A stretch of 64,000 bases of DNA from Candidatus Hermodarchaeota archaeon (GCA_048885525.1 JBHLLP010000001.1:97227-161226), one strand, 5' to 3'; shown: positions 46,887 through 58,274, numbered from the stretch's first letter. Notes: generated from the letters alone by a model not told the origin. Made by a program: numbers and translations.

Positions 46887-48242
46887 TTATTTTAACATTT
46901 TTTTTTCTTTTGCATCTAAATCGAGCCAATCACCAACATTTTTGAGCTGTTTTCTCGACTTTCCACATAAAGTTTTTAAAAAAGGAAGGAATTCTTGGAT
47001 GAAATCAATTTCAGAAATTTCATATTTTCTTTTAATCTTTTCAACAAATTCTTTTTCAATATTTGTTAAAGAAAAATAAGTTCCTGTTATATATCGTGGA
47101 AATACAACTCTTTGAAATCCTTTTGATAAAGGTGTATCTTTTCGCGATAAAACAACTCCGCCAGCAAACAGATCAAAAAAGTAGGGTAGTAGTCCCCAAT
47201 ATTGGGTAGTTTGAATTCTACCAAAAATCTCATCTGCTATTGAAAGATTCTCAAAAGCCTCAGTAAGGTCTCTATTTGATTTTATGAAAGTAAGGAGATT
47301 TTCATTTATCCATTTATACAAAAAGTTGTAATCAACATCAGATTTATCAGTCAAATTGCGAGCTTCTCTTAAAGAATTTATTTTAAATAAATCCCTAATT
47401 AATGTAAAAATCTCTTCCAAATTATCACGATGTAAACTTAAAATTAAATCCCTGAGATCCCCTTCTATCTTACCTTGACCAATTCCTTGAATATCGTTAA
47501 TTACTCCTCTTAAATCACCGCTATTTTTATCAATAATTAACTCTAAATCCTCATTTTTAAGATTGGTAATATTTTCCTTTTTCAGAATATTTTTTGCTAT
47601 CTTTATTACTTCATTTTTAGGTAAGGGATGAACCTCATATCTTTTAATCTTATTATATAATGGCTGAAGATTTGTTTTATATTCATTAGAACACATTATA
47701 ATGGGGAACTGTGTATTCTTAATTAACTCCATAACTGTCGGAATGGCCCCTCTATCTTGAACTCCATAAATACCATCAATTTCATCAATTAGAATTAACT
47801 TTTCTTTTGATTCAGTAATAAAATCCATGATTCCACGAGATTTTGTAGTTTCTCTTAATCTTTTTTCTAATGCGCTCCTCGTTCGTGTATCAGAAGCATT
47901 AGTTTCTATTACTTCCATATTAAAATCATTAGCAAGGGCATAAACTATGGATGTTTTTCCAATTCCAGGTGGACCTTCTAAAAGAATGGCAGCTTTATCA
48001 TAAGATATGTGTTGTTCTTCTTTTTGTTCTTTTTCAATAGTAGTTCTATTGAACTCTCGAATTAGTTTATTCTCTCTATTAATACGATTTCTCTCTTCAA
48101 AGAATTGGTTTAAAAAATTTGTTAATTCTTCATCTAACTTAACTCTTTCTCTACCATACCTCGCAGTGGGTAAAGCCATTTCTTTAATACTTTTAGGACG
48201 ATATTTCTCAACCCATGGAATATTTGAACCATTTTTTGACAT
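46887..48242 (-). CDS. rfcL: Replication factor C large subunit
   Basis: PWVEKYRP, GPPGIGKTS, NASDTR, LIDEIDG, GDLRGVIND. Confidence 0.93.
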   Translation of the reverse strand: MSKNGSNIPWVEKYRPKSIKEMALPTARYGRERVKLDEELTNFLNQFFEERNRINRENKLIREFNRTTIEKEQKEEQHISYDKAAILLEGPPGIGKTSIVYALANDFNMEVIETNASDTRTRSALEKRLRETTKSRGIMDFITESKEKLILIDEIDGIYGVQDRGAIPTVMELIKNTQFPIIMCSNEYKTNLQPLYNKIKRYEVHPLPKNEVIKIAKNILKKENITNLKNEDLELIIDKNSGDLRGVINDIQGIGQGKIEGDLRDLILSLHRDNLEEIFTLIRDLFKINSLREARNLTDKSDVDYNFLYKWINENLLTFIKSNRDLTEAFENLSIADEIFGRIQTTQYWGLLPYFFDLFAGGVVLSRKDTPLSKGFQRVVFPRYITGTYFSLTNIEKEFVEKIKRKYEISEIDFIQEFLPFLKTLCGKSRKQLKNVGDWLDLDAKEKKMLK

Positions 48243-48255
48243 TTACTTTACACAC

Positions 48256-49311
48256 CTACATGTACTCTGAAAACAGACAAATTTTTGACAAGAGAGCAGA
48301 TATTTGAATGTCAATATCTCTACTATCAAGTGTTCTGAAGTCAGAATCTGCAATTAAATTTATTAGTTTAATCTTAGTAAATGTACTTAGCGGTAATTTA
48401 TTGATTTCAATAAGTAAAAGTTTATATAATTCATGAGCACTAAATTTGTAATTCGAAAGGATTCTTCTTGCTAATTCCCGAGCTTTTGGAAAATCTCCTT
48501 TAAAAACTATTAATAAAAGACTTCTAATAAGATCGTTATGAAATTTCTGGGCGTTTTCATATAAATCTTCAATACTGATATTATTATCAGTTATACTACT
48601 TAACTGTAAGAGATCAATAGCTCGAGAGATTTTGCCATCCGAAATTCGATACAATATTTCAATACTTTCATCTGTTATTTCTAATGATTCTTTTTTAGCA
48701 ATTTCAAGAATCAAATTCCTAAATTCGTTTAATCTAACACGAGAAATTAAAATAATTTGGCATCTACTTACAATTGGATCAATAATACTTGAAATTTTAG
48801 TTGTAATTAAAATCATCCTGCAATTTGTGCCATAAATCTCCATTAATCTTCTAAAACCTTGTTGGTTTGAACCTAAGGCTTCAAAATTTTTCACAATTAA
48901 GATTTTAAATGGTGCTTCTCCTAATACTTTCAATTCAACAAAAGTTTTTACTTTAGCTTGAATAAAAGCTGGAGTAGTAATTCTTCTTCCAGCAATACTA
49001 CCAATTTTACTTGTAGAAACATACGTATCTGCTCTAACTTGTTTCCTTTCCTCCTCGGTTAAAGGAACATCAGCATAAACTAATTTAAAATTAGCATCAT
49101 AATCTTTGTTTAAAAATTCTTTCGAAAATAATTTAGCAATCATTGTTTTTCCAATGCCTTTCTCACCAAAAAATAATAAATGTGGAAAATTTTTTTGTTG
49201 AATTGCATACTTTAAAGTATCCTTAACCTTTTCTCTTCCACAAATTTCATCCAAATCTTTTGGATAATACTTTATTCGCCAAATAGGAATTTCTTCAGTC
49301 AAATTTACCAA
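48256..49311 (-). CDS. rfcS: Divergent second RFC small subunit (degenerate Walker B)
   Basis: WRIKYYP, PHLLFFGEKGIGKT, IVKNFE in place of DEAD, QQGFRRLME, IVSRC. Confidence 0.85.
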   Translation of the reverse strand: MVNLTEEIPIWRIKYYPKDLDEICGREKVKDTLKYAIQQKNFPHLLFFGEKGIGKTMIAKLFSKEFLNKDYDANFKLVYADVPLTEEERKQVRADTYVSTSKIGSIAGRRITTPAFIQAKVKTFVELKVLGEAPFKILIVKNFEALGSNQQGFRRLMEIYGTNCRMILITTKISSIIDPIVSRCQIILISRVRLNEFRNLILEIAKKESLEITDESIEILYRISDGKISRAIDLLQLSSITDNNISIEDLYENAQKFHNDLIRSLLLIVFKGDFPKARELARRILSNYKFSAHELYKLLLIEINKLPLSTFTKIKLINLIADSDFRTLDSRDIDIQISALLSKICLFSEYM

Positions 49312-49341
49312 CCCTCAAATCTAAGTTTTTTCAATTATTTC

Positions 49342-50307
49342 TTAAGTTTGAATATTTTCTATAATCATTGCTAAAAGAGCCGATATCTGCATTTGGTCAT
49401 CTGCCCCTTGACTTATTCGATAATCAATTTCTCCGATATATGTCCTTAATTGTATGAATTTTTTAGCTTCTATATTTAATGATGGTAAAACTTCTGAGAT
49501 TTGTCTTATGAAATTACGGCTGTCAAGAATATCAATCGAATCCATAAGTTTCCTCGAACCTAAAAAATCTTTATTTTTTAAAGCCAAAATTAGGTTTTCT
49601 AGAGTTTTTTTATCTAAAAATCCAGAGATTCTTAAAATCTCATCGATATCTAAATTATTTAGAAGTTCGAGAGCAACTGCCATCTGAAGAGTATTTATAG
49701 CTTTTCTTAAATCTCCTCCCGAAATAAAATATAATTGATCAAAGAATTGCTCAGCTTTATCAGATGGAATTTTCAATTTTTCGTTATCAATAATATATTT
49801 TAATCTCTCTATTATCTTTTCTTTTGGCAGATTTACAAATCTAAATACAGCACATCTACTTACAATTGGATCTATTATTCTATTTATATAATTGCATAAT
49901 AGTATGAATTTTATATTATTTGATGCCTTCTCAATAATTCTTCTAAGAGCTTGCTGGACTTGTCCTGGAATATTATCAGCTTCATCCAGAATAACAAATT
50001 TTAAGGTTCCATCTTTTACTAAACTTTGATTAACAAAATTCTTGAGAACATTTCTCACAAAATCTATTCTTACAGTATCAGAAGCATTTAATTCCAAAAG
50101 ATTTGTGTCAAACTCTTCCTCTTTAAGAAAATGCTTTGTTATTATCAAAGCAGTACTGGTTTTTCCGGTTCCTGCAGGCCCAGTAAATATCAAGTGAGGT
50201 ATATTTGTACTCCTTACGAATTTTTTAAGATTATTTATAGCAATACTTTGACTTAGAATTTCATCAAATATTCTGGGGCGATATTTTTCTGTCCAAACGT
50301 CTAACAT
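49342..50307 (-). CDS. rfcS: Replication factor C small subunit (canonical)
   Basis: WTEKYRP, GPAGTGKT, LELNASD, LDEAD, QQALRR, SRC, GDLRKAIN. Confidence 0.95.
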   Translation of the reverse strand: MLDVWTEKYRPRIFDEILSQSIAINNLKKFVRSTNIPHLIFTGPAGTGKTSTALIITKHFLKEEEFDTNLLELNASDTVRIDFVRNVLKNFVNQSLVKDGTLKFVILDEADNIPGQVQQALRRIIEKASNNIKFILLCNYINRIIDPIVSRCAVFRFVNLPKEKIIERLKYIIDNEKLKIPSDKAEQFFDQLYFISGGDLRKAINTLQMAVALELLNNLDIDEILRISGFLDKKTLENLILALKNKDFLGSRKLMDSIDILDSRNFIRQISEVLPSLNIEAKKFIQLRTYIGEIDYRISQGADDQMQISALLAMIIENIQT

Positions 50308-50337: not shown

Positions 50338-50811
50338 TTAATCTTTAAAGTCTTTATCTGTTAGATCTAACTCCAAAACTTCATAAACTTTTTTAAAATT
50401 TAAATTTTTATAGAGTTTAGACGCTTCTACTGCCTTTTCCTTAATATTTACTTTAATTTTTTCTACTTTGATCTTCTTCAAATGCTCTAAAGCTTTTTCT
50501 AACATAAGGTTTCCTACACCTTTCTTTCTATACTGTTCCTTTAGAAAAAACTGCTTAATATAACCTTCCGAAGATCCAAAAGGATCTATTCGAAGTTCTG
50601 CAATAATCATTCCAATTACATCATTAGATTCTTCATCTATAGCTATAAGTATACCGTGACGCTGAAGCGGATCGAAAAGACGACGTCGAATTCCCCAATC
50701 AAAACGTTTAGGATCAAATTTTTGCCCCAAACCCTCAACCAATTGTTTAGTTAAATCTTTTAAATTCTCAATTTGCTCTGGAGAAGCGATTTCAACTTTA
50801 ATATTGCTCAT
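50338..50811 (-). CDS. GNAT-family N-acetyltransferase
   Basis: Acetyl-CoA motif A QYRKKGVG; LYKNLNF. Confidence 0.9.
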   Translation of the reverse strand: MSNIKVEIASPEQIENLKDLTKQLVEGLGQKFDPKRFDWGIRRRLFDPLQRHGILIAIDEESNDVIGMIIAELRIDPFGSSEGYIKQFFLKEQYRKKGVGNLMLEKALEHLKKIKVEKIKVNIKEKAVEASKLYKNLNFKKVYEVLELDLTDKDFKD

Positions 50812-50872: not shown

Positions 50873-51157
50873 TTAGAAATGGCGAGCAGATGTTCCATCC
50901 CATGCCCGGACACTTTCATTTACCCATCCACATTTAGGACATTTGTCTGGAAGTTCCCAACTTTCAAGAGCCGGGTGTATACGACAATATAGACTTCCAC
51001 AATTCTCACATACCAAATATTTAGCTCCACAGCCCGAACACATTTTTAGTTGACCCTGTTCTACAAAAGGAAAAGCTCTTCGCATCCATTCATCATGGGC
51101 GAGATTAAAGTTACCTTTTCCACATACTATACAATGAACTCCATTTTCTTCAGACAT
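50873..51157 (-). CDS. Multi-zinc-ribbon protein (94 aa)
   Basis: CIVC, CSGC, CENC, CRIH, CPKC. Confidence 0.8.
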   Translation of the reverse strand: MSEENGVHCIVCGKGNFNLAHDEWMRRAFPFVEQGQLKMCSGCGAKYLVCENCGSLYCRIHPALESWELPDKCPKCGWVNESVRAWDGTSARHF

Positions 51158-51363: not shown

Positions 51364-51687
51364 TTACATTTTTAATTTCTTTGACCTTCCAGTGCTATTT
51401 ATTTCAGGATTAACCGCTTCAACATTTTGAATTAATGTGTATATCGCATCTTCCTCTAAAGCCTCTTTAAAAGCAAGATACATTTCCTTACTTCCAATAA
51501 ATAATCCCTTTCTTTTCATAGGGCTACCATCACTTTTGAGAGGGTTTATTTCTATAAATAGTAAAGCAGGTCTTGTTTTTGTTTCAGGAACCTTAACTAC
51601 AAATACACCTGGTATTGGAGTCTCCATTTTTTCCCAATCTTTCCCATTTTTCAAGTGATCTTTTAATTGTGCTTGAATATCTGCCAT
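51364..51687 (-). CDS. Conserved hypothetical protein, possibly PC4-like ssDNA-binding fold
   Basis: Beta strands followed by GSPMKRKGLFI and an amphipathic helix. Confidence 0.65.
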   Translation of the reverse strand: MADIQAQLKDHLKNGKDWEKMETPIPGVFVVKVPETKTRPALLFIEINPLKSDGSPMKRKGLFIGSKEMYLAFKEALEEDAIYTLIQNVEAVNPEINSTGRSKKLKM

Positions 51688-52235: not shown

Positions 52236-55200
52236 TTATTCCTTGCTCTTTCCTAATAAATCTAAAACTTTTTTCCGTCTCTCTTCTCTTCGTGCCTTGA
52301 TTCTTTTACTGAGCTTTTCCATTTCATCGGCAGAGGGTTCTTCTTTACCTTTAATTAATTCTCTAATTGGTTTCTTAGTAACTTTGGTTTTTAATTCAAT
52401 AATTTTATTGTCAATTTCTTTAATTATTTTTTTTTCTATCTTGACTTCTTTGAGCTGGAATTTTGCTTCATTTAATTCAGAAATAGCCTTCTTGAAGTTT
52501 TCATCAACTAAAGATACATGAGCTTTATCTAACGCTTTATAGGCAGATTCAAAATTTTTATTGTGTAAAACATCAAGTGAAGCATCTATAGTTATTAATG
52601 GAATCTGTGTTTTAGTTTTTATTTTACTAATTTGCTCAGTAATTCTTTCAATCTCATCTGATTTTTCTAATTTAGTTAATCTTTGAACTTCCTCTCTTAG
52701 TATCAAAATTCCCTCATTCAATCTGAACCTATCAATTAAATGGTCAGCTTTTTCCAATTTAATCGATATCTTTCTGTCAAGTTCTTCTTTCGCAAGTTTA
52801 CGCTTTTCTTCTTTTTTTCTCTTTTCAAGTTCTTCATGTTGTCTTTTTGTTTCTTCTTTTAATAATTCCATTTCTTTTTCTTCTTCAATTTTCTTTAATT
52901 TAATTTCTTCATAAATCTCAGCTTGCTTTTGCTCTTGTTTAAGTTTGAAAAGAAGGTCATTATTTATTCGTGAAACTTCTCGATGCCACGATATTTTTTC
53001 GAACAATTCTCTAGCAGAGATATACTTATCATATGCTTCAGAGAATTTTGCACCATCCATTAATGCTGTACCTTCTTCTAAAAGTTCATATGCTTCTTCA
53101 GAAATTTGTCTTTCCCTTTCTTTTTCTGACTGAATTTTTAGTAATTCTCTTCTTTTCTCTTCTTGTTGACGATTTCTTATAATTTGAGCCTCAGCTACTT
53201 TTTCTTCTAATTTTTCTTCAATAAGTAGTTCTTCAGCTTTCCTTTTTTCAATAACTTGTTGTTCAAGCTCATATGCCGTTTTCTTGTTAACAATCATTGT
53301 AATTGAATCTCGAATCATCCTTATTCCTTCTTGCCATTCTATGTCAAAAAATATTTGTTCACTTTGTTTATAAATTTCAATTGCTTTGTCAAAATGATTT
53401 TGTCTTAACTCACGTTTAGCTTGATCCATTAAACGAAAAGCTTTATCTTTTTGGGTTTCAAATTGAGCAATCCTTTCTTTTTTTAAATGTAGAGTTTCTT
53501 TTCGCTGTTTTAATAATTTTTCTTGCTCAATCCTAGCTTGTTCCAATAACTTTTGTTGAAGCATCAACTCTTCTTCTCGTTTTTTAGCTTTTTCAGCTTC
53601 TAAGGCACGTATTTTGTTGTCCCTTTCTAACTTTTCTTTATAAAACTTTATAGTCTCGATTAATTTCGCAGATTCTTCTTTCCAGTCAATTTTTTCAAAC
53701 TGTTTTCTTGCTTCGCGATATATTTCAATAATTTTTTCATATGGCGCTTCAAAATCAAAAACACCACCTTTAATTTTTATCTCATATTCCTGTGCCATTC
53801 TCTCTGCTTCTTGAATCATATCAAAAATTCCCTCGGCTATTTCATCAGATTCTTTCTTTTTTTGTTGAATTTCTAAAATTCTTTTTTGTCTTTCAAGAAA
53901 ATCCTTATCAATATCTAAATCAGCCGCTAAAAGTTCAATTTCTGACTCTTCTAATTTCTTCTTTTCTATAATTCTTAAATTGTCATCTTTTTCTTTTTTA
54001 TCCATATAAAATTTAATTGTATTAATTAAGCGATTAGCCTCCTCATTCCACCCAATTTCTTGGAATATTTCTATCGCTTGTTTATAATTTGAAAGAGCTT
54101 TTTCGTAAGGACTATCGTAAATCAAAATATCTTTTCTAATACTTAATTCATAATGTTTAACCTCTTTCTCGGCTTCATCTATTAGATTCATTGCTTTATC
54201 TAATAAAATGTCTTCTTCTTTTTCTTTTTCAAGTTCATCTATTTTTTCTGGTTTAACAGGTTTAATTTCTCTTTTGCTTAATTTATGTAGTTCTTCAAGC
54301 TCTTTTTCTCTTTGGACTTTTTGAACTTCAAATTCGAGTAATTTTTGATGTTTTTCTAATTTCTCTTGATAAATTTTAATTTGATTGGCGTAAACCTCCG
54401 CTTGATCTTTCCATCCCCAAGCATAAACTTTTTTTCTTATTTCTTTATATATTTCTATAATCTCGAGGTAAGGTGTTTGTTCAATTATTTCTCCTTTTTT
54501 AATAGCTTTCTTCATAGCTGAATCAAATTCTCTTTCAAGTTTCTCTGCTTTATTGACCTCTTCTGTTATCGATTTTTGAAATTCTTTTTCTTCCTTTTCT
54601 TTTTCACTTATTTCTAGTTTTTTATGATCAATTTCAACTTCTTTTTCAATCTTGTGCATTTCTTCAATTTCTTTTTCTCTTTGGACTTTTTGAACTTCAA
54701 CTTCAAGTAATTTTTGATGTTTCTCTAATTTCTCTTGATATATTTTAATTTGATTGGCGTAGACCTCCGCTTGGTCCTTCCATCCCCAAGTGTATACTTT
54801 TTTTCTTATTTCTTTATATATTTCTATAATCTCGAGGTAGGGTGTTTGCTCTATAATTTCTCCTTTTTTAATAGCTTTTTTCATAGCTGAATCAAATTCC
54901 CTTTCAAGTTTCTCTGCTTTATTAACCTCTTCTGTTATGGATTTTTGAAATTCCTTTTCTTCCTTTTCTCTTTCACTTATTTCTAGCTTTTTATGATCTA
55001 TTTCAACTTCTTTATCAACTTTATGCATTTCTTCAATATCTTTATCTCTTTGGGCTTTTTGAGCTTCGACTTCGAGTAATTTTTGATGTTTCTCTAATTT
55101 CTCTTGATATATTTTAATTTGATTTGCATAGACCTCAGCTTGCTCATTCCATCCTCGAGAATAAACCTTTTCCTTAATTCCTTTATAAATTTCAATTATC

Positions 55201-58200
55201 TCTGGATAAGGTGTTTGCTCAATAATTTCACCTTTTTTAATAGCTTTTTTCATAGCGGAATCAAATTCTCTTTCAAGTTTCTCTGCTTTATTAACCTCTT
55301 CTGTTATCGATTTTTGAAATTCTTTTTCTTCCTTTTTTCTATCAATAGCTGCTAATTTTTTATCATCTACTTCAATTTCCCTTTCTACTTTATGCATTTC
55401 TTCAATATCTTTATCTCTTTGGGCTTTTTGAGCTTCAACTTCGAGTAATTTTTGATGTTTTTCTAACTTTTCTTGATAGATTTTAATTTGATTTGCATAG
55501 ACATTAGCTTGGTCCTTCCATCCCCAAGCATATACTTTTTTTCTTATTTCTTTATATATTTCTATTATCTCGGGATAAGGTGTTTGCTCAATTACTTCCC
55601 CTTTTTTAATAGCTTTTTTCATAGCTGAATCAAATTCTCTTTCAAGTTTCTCTGCTTTATTAACCTCTTCTGTTATAAATTTTTGAAATTCTTTTTCTTC
55701 TTTTTCTTTTTCACGTATTTCTAGCTTTTTATGATCAACTTCAACTTCTTTTTCGATTTTGTGCATTTCTTCAATTTCTTTTTCTCTTTGAACTTTTTGA
55801 GCTTCAACTTCAAGTAATTTTTGATGTTTCTCTAATTTTTCTTGATAAATTTTAATTTGATTTGCATAAACCTCAGCTTGCTCCTTCCATCCTTGAGCAT
55901 AAATTTTTTCTCTTAATTCTTTATAAATCTCGATAACTTCAGAATAAGGTGTAATTTCTATTATCTCTCCTCGTCTATAAGCCTTCCTCATAGCCATTTC
56001 ATAGTCGTGTACCATTTTTTCGGCTCTGTTAATATTCTCATTAATGTATTTTTTAAGATCTTCCATTTCTTTTTTCTTCTCTATCAATTTTAACTTTTCT
56101 TCATCTAATCCAATCTGCTTACCAACTTTATGCATTTCCTCAAGTGCTTTTTCTCTTTGAGCCTTTTTAGCTTCTACTTCTCGTAATTTATTATCATGCT
56201 CTAACTTTTGTGTATAAAAATTTATTTGGGTGCTATATGCCGCAGCTTCTCCCTCACGTCCCTTTTCAAGCAGCATCCGTTTTACTCTTTCATATATACC
56301 TATAATTTTTAAAAAAGGAGGATTTTCTGCTAACTTACCCTTTTTTATTGCTTTTTTCATTTCAGAATTATATTCACGAGCCATTTTTTCAGCTCGATTA
56401 ACCATCACATCAATGATGTTATCAAATTCTAACTTTTCCTCCTCTATTTTTTTTTGCTTTTCTAAGATTCTCAATCTTTCAGTTTCCAATCCCATAAGAG
56501 GTTTCTCTTTTTTAATTTTAAGTGTTTCTTCAATCTCTTCTTGCTTTCTCGCTTTCTCTGCTTCAATCTGTCTTAACCGATTATCTTTTTCTAACTTTTG
56601 TTTATAAGTATACATCTGACTTGAAAAAATTGTAACATCTGTTTCCCAACCTCTTTCTAATGCCATTTCTCTAGCTCTTTCAAAAATTTGGATAATTTCC
56701 TTATATGGACATTTTAATTCAAATTTACCCTGTCTTAATGCAACCTCATACTCTCTTGCTAAACGTTCCGCTCTATTTGTCATCTCTTCAAATTGGTTTC
56801 GTATATTTTGGATCTCAATTGCTTTTTGGCGTTGTTTTTCTATATCTTGTTTTTCTTCTTCACTAATACGAGTTACTATGCCTTCTTGTTTAATTTTTAA
56901 TACTTCTTTGGCTTCTTCCTGTTTTCTTATCTTATCTACTTCTATTTTTCTTATTTTTTTATCTTTTTCGAATTTTTGGATATAAATTTCTATTGTATCA
57001 TCATAGATCGCTGCTTCCTTGTTCCAATCCTTATCAATGAGTAAATCCTTTATTTTTTTATAAATTTCAATTACTTTTGGATATATACACTTTTCCACCA
57101 TTTCTCCATCTTTTATAGCCTTCTGCATTGCTAATTCATACTCACGCGCCATTCTTGCAGCTTCACTTGCCATATTATCAATCTGTACCTTAAAAAAATC
57201 CTGTTCCATTCTTTGAAGTTCTAATCCTCTTAATCTTTCTAATTGTGCAAGCTTCTCTTGTTCACTTATTTCTTTTGCATACTGTTCAATGAGTTTTTCT
57301 TGTTTTATTTCAATTTCAACTTTTTGTTCAACCTCTACTTTTTCTTTCTCTAATTCTTTAAGATGCCTAAATTTCTCTTTTTCTAATTGTTCTATCGTAT
57401 CTCGTATTCGTTTAGCTTCATAATTCCAATTCAATTCTTCAAATAAATTTACACCCTCTGAATATAACTCTATAGCTTGATCATATTCATAAAGTTTAGC
57501 CTTTTCTACTGCTTGTTCTAATATCTCATATGCTCGAGTTGAAATCTCTTCCTCTCTCTTTTTAGCTTCAAGAAACTGTTCTAACTTTTTTTCTTTTTCC
57601 AGTTCCTCGCTTATTGGAGCTTCTATTTCTATTTCAAAATCTACTTCTTCTTTCTTCAAACTACGCAAATATTCAGCTTTTTTATTATAGCATTCTTCAA
57701 TCAAGATAAATAATCTTTCTATTTCTTCATTTTTATTAAGTTCTTCAAGAATCTTTTCAGCTTCATCATATTTATCAAAAGCTTCCTCGAAATTATTGTT
57801 ATTAGTTAATTCATGAGCCTCAACAATCAAGTGGTCTGCTAAACTAATCAAATCTGCTTCAGTTTTAGTTTCTTCGATCAATTCCTCTTCTTCGATCACA
57901 GCACCCTCTTCAATTTCTTCATCAATGTCCTTAAGATCTTCTACTTTTCTTTCAGGTTGAGCTTCGATTTCTCTGAATGATTTTTCTTTAAGTATATAGA
58001 GTTCTGATATTTTATCATTTATTGCTTCGATTTCTTCCTCCCTATTAATCTGAGCATATAATCCAATTGCTTGACGTAAAATCTCAATCCCATCATCAAA
58101 ATATTGCGAAGCTATAAGATTCATCGCATGCTCTACTAATTCATATGCTTCAGTAGCAATTTCCTCTTCCATATCCATCATATCGGCGAAAAATGCGTCT

Positions 58201-58274
58201 TTTGTAGGATCAGGTCCATTTTCATCGAATTCCTTTTCCAAATCTTCCTCTCTTTTCTCTTCCATTAATCTCAA
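52236..58274 (-). CDS. Giant (2012 aa) E/K-rich alpha-helical repeat protein with TPR/MIT-like three-helix modules
   Basis: Uninterrupted 6-kb ORF; recurring A..L...A / Y...I.IY / W..EA..I modules separated by charged helices; no TM or signal peptide. Confidence 0.9.
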   Translation of the reverse strand: MRLMEEKREEDLEKEFDENGPDPTKDAFFADMMDMEEEIATEAYELVEHAMNLIASQYFDDGIEILRQAIGLYAQINREEEIEAINDKISELYILKEKSFREIEAQPERKVEDLKDIDEEIEEGAVIEEEELIEETKTEADLISLADHLIVEAHELTNNNNFEEAFDKYDEAEKILEELNKNEEIERLFILIEECYNKKAEYLRSLKKEEVDFEIEIEAPISEELEKEKKLEQFLEAKKREEEISTRAYEILEQAVEKAKLYEYDQAIELYSEGVNLFEELNWNYEAKRIRDTIEQLEKEKFRHLKELEKEKVEVEQKVEIEIKQEKLIEQYAKEISEQEKLAQLERLRGLELQRMEQDFFKVQIDNMASEAARMAREYELAMQKAIKDGEMVEKCIYPKVIEIYKKIKDLLIDKDWNKEAAIYDDTIEIYIQKFEKDKKIRKIEVDKIRKQEEAKEVLKIKQEGIVTRISEEEKQDIEKQRQKAIEIQNIRNQFEEMTNRAERLAREYEVALRQGKFELKCPYKEIIQIFERAREMALERGWETDVTIFSSQMYTYKQKLEKDNRLRQIEAEKARKQEEIEETLKIKKEKPLMGLETERLRILEKQKKIEEEKLEFDNIIDVMVNRAEKMAREYNSEMKKAIKKGKLAENPPFLKIIGIYERVKRMLLEKGREGEAAAYSTQINFYTQKLEHDNKLREVEAKKAQREKALEEMHKVGKQIGLDEEKLKLIEKKKEMEDLKKYINENINRAEKMVHDYEMAMRKAYRRGEIIEITPYSEVIEIYKELREKIYAQGWKEQAEVYANQIKIYQEKLEKHQKLLEVEAQKVQREKEIEEMHKIEKEVEVDHKKLEIREKEKEEKEFQKFITEEVNKAEKLEREFDSAMKKAIKKGEVIEQTPYPEIIEIYKEIRKKVYAWGWKDQANVYANQIKIYQEKLEKHQKLLEVEAQKAQRDKDIEEMHKVEREIEVDDKKLAAIDRKKEEKEFQKSITEEVNKAEKLEREFDSAMKKAIKKGEIIEQTPYPEIIEIYKGIKEKVYSRGWNEQAEVYANQIKIYQEKLEKHQKLLEVEAQKAQRDKDIEEMHKVDKEVEIDHKKLEISEREKEEKEFQKSITEEVNKAEKLEREFDSAMKKAIKKGEIIEQTPYLEIIEIYKEIRKKVYTWGWKDQAEVYANQIKIYQEKLEKHQKLLEVEVQKVQREKEIEEMHKIEKEVEIDHKKLEISEKEKEEKEFQKSITEEVNKAEKLEREFDSAMKKAIKKGEIIEQTPYLEIIEIYKEIRKKVYAWGWKDQAEVYANQIKIYQEKLEKHQKLLEFEVQKVQREKELEELHKLSKREIKPVKPEKIDELEKEKEEDILLDKAMNLIDEAEKEVKHYELSIRKDILIYDSPYEKALSNYKQAIEIFQEIGWNEEANRLINTIKFYMDKKEKDDNLRIIEKKKLEESEIELLAADLDIDKDFLERQKRILEIQQKKKESDEIAEGIFDMIQEAERMAQEYEIKIKGGVFDFEAPYEKIIEIYREARKQFEKIDWKEESAKLIETIKFYKEKLERDNKIRALEAEKAKKREEELMLQQKLLEQARIEQEKLLKQRKETLHLKKERIAQFETQKDKAFRLMDQAKRELRQNHFDKAIEIYKQSEQIFFDIEWQEGIRMIRDSITMIVNKKTAYELEQQVIEKRKAEELLIEEKLEEKVAEAQIIRNRQQEEKRRELLKIQSEKERERQISEEAYELLEEGTALMDGAKFSEAYDKYISARELFEKISWHREVSRINNDLLFKLKQEQKQAEIYEEIKLKKIEEEKEMELLKEETKRQHEELEKRKKEEKRKLAKEELDRKISIKLEKADHLIDRFRLNEGILILREEVQRLTKLEKSDEIERITEQISKIKTKTQIPLITIDASLDVLHNKNFESAYKALDKAHVSLVDENFKKAISELNEAKFQLKEVKIEKKIIKEIDNKIIELKTKVTKKPIRELIKGKEEPSADEMEKLSKRIKARREERRKKVLDLLGKSKE
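54301..55935. repeat. Intragenic tandem repeat, 369-bp (123-aa) period, about 4.4 near-identical copies
   Basis: The G of the TTTTTGATGTTT landmark recurs at 54347, 54716, 55085, 55454, 55823. Confidence 0.95.

Follow-up and report, generated by a model that had tools for sequence, protein, structure and literature searches.

The window analyzed here, a 64,000-nucleotide stretch of DNA, carries three adjacent RFC genes in tandem on the minus strand (46887-50307), and the middle one encodes a small subunit with a degenerate ATPase site. This raises the question of which clamp loader these genes build, and what such a subunit would do in it. A preliminary description of the locus had proposed a three-gene loader of stoichiometry L:S1x3:S2 with a dedicated terminal subunit, possibly an intermediate toward the eukaryotic heteropentamer. 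The three tandem genes are indeed present, and the intact small subunit and the large subunit score over the cut-offs of NF001679 and NF003229, respectively. Judged by its genes and their relatives, the locus is the rfcS3-rfcS2-rfcL operon of the Lokiarchaeales (Promethearchaeales), a system already published by Feng et al. 2025 (PMC12680538). That article reports the operon with rfcS1 elsewhere, and describes RfcS2 as having Walker A and the arginine finger, lacking Walker B, and being ‘akin to the eukaryotic RfcE’. A literature search beyond this article found nothing further.

Table 1. Genes of the RFC operon and motifs of RfcS2 in the window.
Feature	Coordinates	Strand	Remarks
GNAT acetyltransferase gene	50338-50811	-	PF00583; 30 bp upstream of rfcS3
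rfcS3, intact small subunit, 321 aa	49342-50307	-	NF001679 310 bits, over cut-off
rfcS2, degenerate small subunit, 348 aa (probable start)	48256-49302	-	351-aa ORF runs from 49311
S2 Walker A, GEKGIGKT	49144-49167	-	Lys invariant; Thr replaced in 5/34 orthologues
S2 NASD remnant, YADV	49066-49077	-	end of second core strand
S2 conserved insert, ~27 residues	48982-49062	-	after NASD strand; limits approximate
S2 degenerate Walker B, KNFE for DEAD	48880-48891	-	full IVKNFE = 48880-48897
S2 sensor-1 site, ITTK for xCNY	48796-48807	-	Asn replaced
S2 SRC arginine finger	48760-48768	-	invariant, 34/34 orthologues
S2 sensor-2 site, GKIS for GDLR	48625-48636	-	Arg replaced
rfcL, large subunit, 451 aa	46887-48242	-	NF003229 298 bits, over cut-off

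RfcS3 keeps all of its motifs (Walker A, NASD, DEAD, sensor 1, SRC and GDLR). The true start of rfcS2 is probably the TTG at 49302, because GAGGG lies upstream of it, most orthologues have 347-348 aa, and the 348-aa product is the called gene in a public collection. RfcL has intact Walker A and B motifs and lacks the SRC finger. It carries a charged insert, ~37 residues, ahead of Walker A (47976-48194, minus strand), and its Walker A lies 80 residues from the N-terminal motif versus 42-44 in other archaea. Ahead of Walker B, an internal RGIMDF motif (47820-47837, minus strand) is kept in this family only. The protein also lacks a C-terminal PIP tail; we considered this absence as a trait specific to RfcL of this system and rejected it, as most other Asgard RfcL proteins examined also lack the tail. 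The GNAT gene is probably co-transcribed with the RFC operon. In 37 of 41 operon loci a GNAT gene is located directly upstream of rfcS3, with 42-91% identity and often better conserved than S2 or S3. Of the remaining loci, those of Ca. Harpocratesius repetitus and genome G280 showed none and two end too early. It is accompanied by a small Cys-rich gene (50873-51157 in the window) in 32 of the 41 loci and by a 107-aa gene (51364-51687) in 27. Further along the window, 52236-58274 (minus strand) encodes a 2012-aa Glu/Lys-rich repeat protein without an obvious enzyme motif.

The operon is not the whole set. A tblastn search of the 3.58-Mb genome found a third small-subunit gene, rfcS1, on contig C3; the preliminary description had missed both this gene and the sensor-1 loss in S2. 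The C3 gene encodes 323 aa with all motifs intact, scores 437 bits with NF001679, and is flanked by truA-like and enolase-like genes; its product is 37% identical to RfcS3. PCNA gave one match in the genome. In maximum-likelihood trees, the window S2 forms a clade with RfcS2 of H. repetitus (MCF2141643.1; 100/100), the intact operon gene with the RfcS3 of the H. repetitus operon (100/100), and the C3 protein with its RfcS1 (MCF2139586.1; 100/98). The intact operon gene, previously named rfcS1, is thus rfcS3. H. repetitus belongs to the same order as the window’s host, and its genome has the same operon and a separate rfcS1, with 42% (S2), 42% (S3), 35% (L) and 57% (S1) protein identity. The closest loci, at up to 84%, are from Promethearchaeota/Promethearchaeia (Lokiarchaeia) MAGs. 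Gene order is S3-S2 in all 35 loci compared and S3-S2-L in 33, the remaining two ending at contig edges. Exactly three small-subunit matches were found in 84 of 94 genomes of the order (≥90% completeness), and high-scoring S2 matches occurred only within the order among the 251 Asgard genomes searched. A Loki-type operon was also seen on contigs labelled Nanopelagicaceae bacterium and Thorarchaeota (L028 and L034; 63% and 82% identity), which are probably mis-binned or mislabelled.

S2 has lost the hydrolysis residues of its ATPase site. Its Walker A and SRC finger are kept, NASD is lost and GDLR has become GKIS, all as first described; the degeneracy of Walker B also holds, and the coordinates first given for IVKNFE cover KNFE only (Table 1). 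Among 34 orthologues, the Walker B Asp is kept in two, the Glu in one and both in none, while the sensor-1 Asn and the sensor-2 Arg are kept in none. In the sister family, the NASD site reads YASD, YGSD or YADD. Two arginines near SRC are invariant in the 34 orthologues, like the SRC Arg and the Walker A Lys. Arg230 was considered as a shifted sensor 2 and rejected, since only 14 of the 34 orthologues keep it. Because the finger is intact in every orthologue while the Walker B, sensor-1 and sensor-2 residues are lost across them, the loss is selective and not chance or decay. The motif losses and a score under the RFC-small cut-off (214 vs 303 bits) could also suggest a decaying or non-RFC paralogue outside the loader. 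We regard this as very improbable: the frame is intact and the length near-constant in the 34 orthologues, the finger is invariant, and the gene is fixed in the operon. The reading is also contradicted by the co-purification of S2 with the H. repetitus complex (PMC12680538), which for that organism bears out the earlier expectation that S2 enters the complex.

In clamp loaders, the arginine finger that completes an ATP site comes from the next subunit, and the terminal E subunit gives a finger and receives none. The pattern in S2, with its own hydrolysis residues lost and the finger kept, is what the E position predicts, because E donates a finger and receives none. We consider it highly probable that the operon and the C3 rfcS1 together encode a four-gene pentameric loader for the single PCNA, with L at A, S1 and S3 in B-D, and one S2 at E. 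In this arrangement, RfcL would occupy position A, RfcS1 and RfcS3, with their intact ATPase sites, would fill B-D as 2:1 or 1:2, and a single RfcS2 at E would end the spiral, turned toward the cleft and the C-terminal domain of RfcL. The E site would get no arginine finger because RfcL has none, and the hydrolysis residues of S2 would consequently be free to decay; its SRC arginine would be kept because it supplies the missing part of the D subunit's ATP site. We infer that S2 does not hydrolyze ATP and that its finger acts in trans. The structural context of clamp loaders is given in PMC8893722.

This assignment agrees at each point tested with the description by Feng et al. (PMC12680538), where all four RFC proteins of H. 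repetitus co-purified and the E position was taken by S2 in AlphaFold3 models with L:S1:S3:S2 ratios of 1:2:1:1 and 1:1:2:1. The reading of S2 as a hydrolysis-deficient terminal subunit, already made in the preliminary description, matches that published model, and the E position and plug of S2 are to this extent predictions modelled by others. The L:S1x3:S2 stoichiometry proposed earlier is not supported, since the canonical RfcS1 is the fourth gene elsewhere; the pentamer is likely L:S1/S3(x3):S2. According to the same study, the pull-down selected complexes through RfcL and RfcS1 tags, such that S1-free or mixed populations could also exist, and LC-MS was done once; we found no assay of S2 for ATPase or clamp-loading activity in the portion of the article available. 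An alternative is that two loaders coexist, L:S3x3:S2 from the operon, which keeps the stoichiometry first proposed with S3 in the role of the intact subunit, and a second one in which RfcS1 forms L:S1x3:S2 or L:S1x4. The operon by itself encodes a full set with rfcS1 unlinked, and S1-free complexes would be invisible to the pull-down. Moreover, in the sister order of the class, probably Helarchaeales, rfcL is next to an rfcS2-type gene and rfcS1 stands apart, and four genomes yielded no third small-subunit match, which makes L:S1x3:S2 a plausible older form. We nevertheless judge two loaders unlikely: S3 co-purified via the S1 tag, implying that at least some complexes contain both S1 and S3 (PMC12680538), and the great majority of genomes in the order retain all three small-subunit genes.

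Besides its motif losses, S2 differs from canonical archaeal small subunits in its Walker A-Walker B spacing of 84 residues, compared with 55-62. The insert reported previously between the two motifs is present, at ~27 residues rather than ~25. An AlphaFold2 model built on a 115-row alignment made here shows the full RFC fold (pLDDT 86.8, versus 41 from the single sequence), with the insert as a helix (residues 86-96) followed by a low-confidence basic loop (97-111) in which GSxAG is invariant; the strand register of the model is not independent of that alignment. A fold search with the model gave similar scores for all RFC small subunits (Z 25-29). The best Z values were 29.0 for an RFC-C chain, 28.8 for Pyrococcus RFCS and 26.3 for the best E chain, so that RFC-E was not singled out by Z; over the full length, the lowest rmsd (3.0 Å) was to E chains.

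The conserved basic insert is predicted to project into the DNA chamber, where it would probably be a functional analogue of the E-plug of eukaryotic RFC-E, a beta-hairpin (PMC8893722). S2 aligns gap-free between Walker A and the end of the NASD strand and the insert comes next, although the alignment register may be shifted. Thorarchaeia, sister-order and euryarchaeal S2-type subunits likewise carry an insert after the NASD site. In RFC-E, by contrast, the hairpin precedes an intact NPSD strand, and hhalign forced an overlap of the S2 insert with the E-plug only at low confidence. In Feng et al., the modelled helical insert of S2 sits where the E-plug sits, and it is described as structurally unlike the E-plug yet said to develop into it (PMC12680538). 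The insert site in our alignment, subject to the same possible shift of register, departs from this scheme and calls into question the derivation of the E-plug from the S2 insert. We give about an even chance to a different view, in which the S2 insert is a separate plug at another sequence site, not a forerunner of the E-plug, and is common to the terminal small subunits of Asgard archaea and Halobacteriota; S2, with all four hydrolysis elements lost, may also be nucleotide-free and functionally nearer bacterial delta-prime than Rfc5. If this is true, a DNA-gating plug on the terminal subunit evolved at least two times, and one step of the published model is to be amended.

Whether RFC-E descends from the S2 side was examined in two maximum-likelihood trees of eukaryotic B, C, D and E subunits, Halobacteriota RFCS1 and RFCS2, and Asgard sequences. 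The trees have no outgroup and omit Thermoproteota other than Bathyarchaeia, Thermococci, Methanobacteriota, viral RFCs and the longest haloarchaeal row; sister-order S2 was added and some rows were changed for the second tree. The deep branches of both lack strong support. In the first tree, Loki and Thor S2 join Halobacteriota RFCS2 (83/64) and RFC-E groups on their side, separated from the canonical subunits (83/97). The second tree reproduces the published topology, with Asgard S2 and RFC-E together (88/97), S3 with RFC-B/C/D (84/77), and Halobacteriota RFCS2 beside its own S1 (91/92), a position that flipped with sampling. AU tests rejected none of Loki S2+E (p 0.39), S3+BCD (p 0.49), S2+S3 tandem duplication (p 0.15) and B+C+D+E (p 0.20); they have low power because of the single 320-column gene and its long branches.

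The same data bear on convergence, in which S2 belongs to an archaeal terminal-subunit family (Loki, Thor, sister order, perhaps euryarchaeal RFCS2), RFC-E was specialized separately, and the likeness is one of position and not descent. The insert site speaks for this, as do the motifs lost: RFC-E has a GKKT Walker A and NPSD and in most cases retains the Walker B Glu and the sensor-2 Arg, which S2 does not. The S2 profile matched Halobacteriota RFCS2 at 399 (E 6e-57) and RFC-E at 219 (E 1e-30), although branch length also shapes profile scores. Loki S2 was sister to Thorarchaeia S2 in both trees (98/91, 99/94) and never directly to RFC-E, and the single eukaryotic clade was among the topologies not rejected. 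On the other hand, RFC-E falls with Asgard S2 on one side of both trees, the second agrees with the published topology, the Loki S2+E grouping was likewise not rejected, and the topology tests that Feng et al. report used far more taxa (PMC12680538). We therefore hold convergence to be a serious but lesser possibility, and descent of RFC-E from the Asgard S2 side to be compatible with our trees without being established by them. The possible link to RFC-E first suggested for this locus matches the published model; its ancestry reading is left ambiguous by the RFCS2 grouping in one tree and its absence in the other, and by an insert at the RFCS2 site and not the E-plug site. RRxMEKY was considered as an RFC-E signature and rejected, as RRTMEKY also occurs in canonical RfcS1.

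Several known systems resemble this loader. Euryarchaeal RFCS2 (PRK12402; Methanosarcina type, PMC2880001) provides a precedent, L:RFCS1x3:RFCS2, in which one divergent terminal small subunit keeps the finger, has a weakened Walker B, and carries an insert directly after NASD. Unlike it, S2 falls under the PRK12402 cut-off (182.8 vs 317 bits), its insert sequence is unrelated, and the loader has four genes instead of three; RFCS2 also usually retains NASD and often the Glu, and its tree position is unstable. RFC-E (yeast Rfc5, human RFC3) shares with S2 the SRC finger, a crippled site with a degenerate Walker B, the proposed terminal position and the extra Walker A-B length (82-91 in most rows); the two are ~20% identical, and the E-plug hairpin before the NASD strand contrasts with the helix and loop after it in S2. 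S2 of Thorarchaeia, sister to Loki S2, has a longer insert (~49 residues) at the same site, retains DEAD and GDLR in most cases, and is encoded away from rfcL (loci L068-L072). The sister-order S2-type gene directly precedes rfcL, and its longer inserts resemble those of Thorarchaeia S2. No RfcS3 match was found in the Thorarchaeia genomes or the four sister-order genomes examined (L309, L311, L052, L310). In Thorarchaeia-type genomes (L068-L072), Walker A of the canonical RfcS reads SKT or AKT instead of GKT. An S2-type gene before rfcL in the sister order has a ~27-nt in-frame insert with a TGA that splits Walker A (L061:1594-1620, minus strand, G237:C107; also G277:C4), a candidate bulge-helix-bulge mRNA intron. 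In the canonical rfcS1 of G237:C131 (L043:1547-1576), an in-frame insert of ~30 nt lies just after the KYRP motif and contains an inverted repeat as well as several stops; from its sequence, this insert is a further intron candidate, and its site is not that of the Walker A insert.

The closest system is that of Feng et al. (PMC12680538), whose available text contains no mention that we found of the sensor-1 and sensor-2 losses or the Walker A Thr drift. Our additions to the published account are that all 34 S2 orthologues have lost both the sensor-1 Asn and the sensor-2 Arg, the Walker A Thr variation and the insert site. The two systems share operon order, an unlinked rfcS1, an S2 with Walker A and finger and without Walker B, a helical insert and a fingerless RfcL, and differ by family-level divergence only. 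The window copy thus adds one more genome to a described, order-wide feature. The Lokiarchaeales loader is a living example of four identical small subunits split into position-specific ones, and for this reason it was published as a eukaryotic-signature complex.
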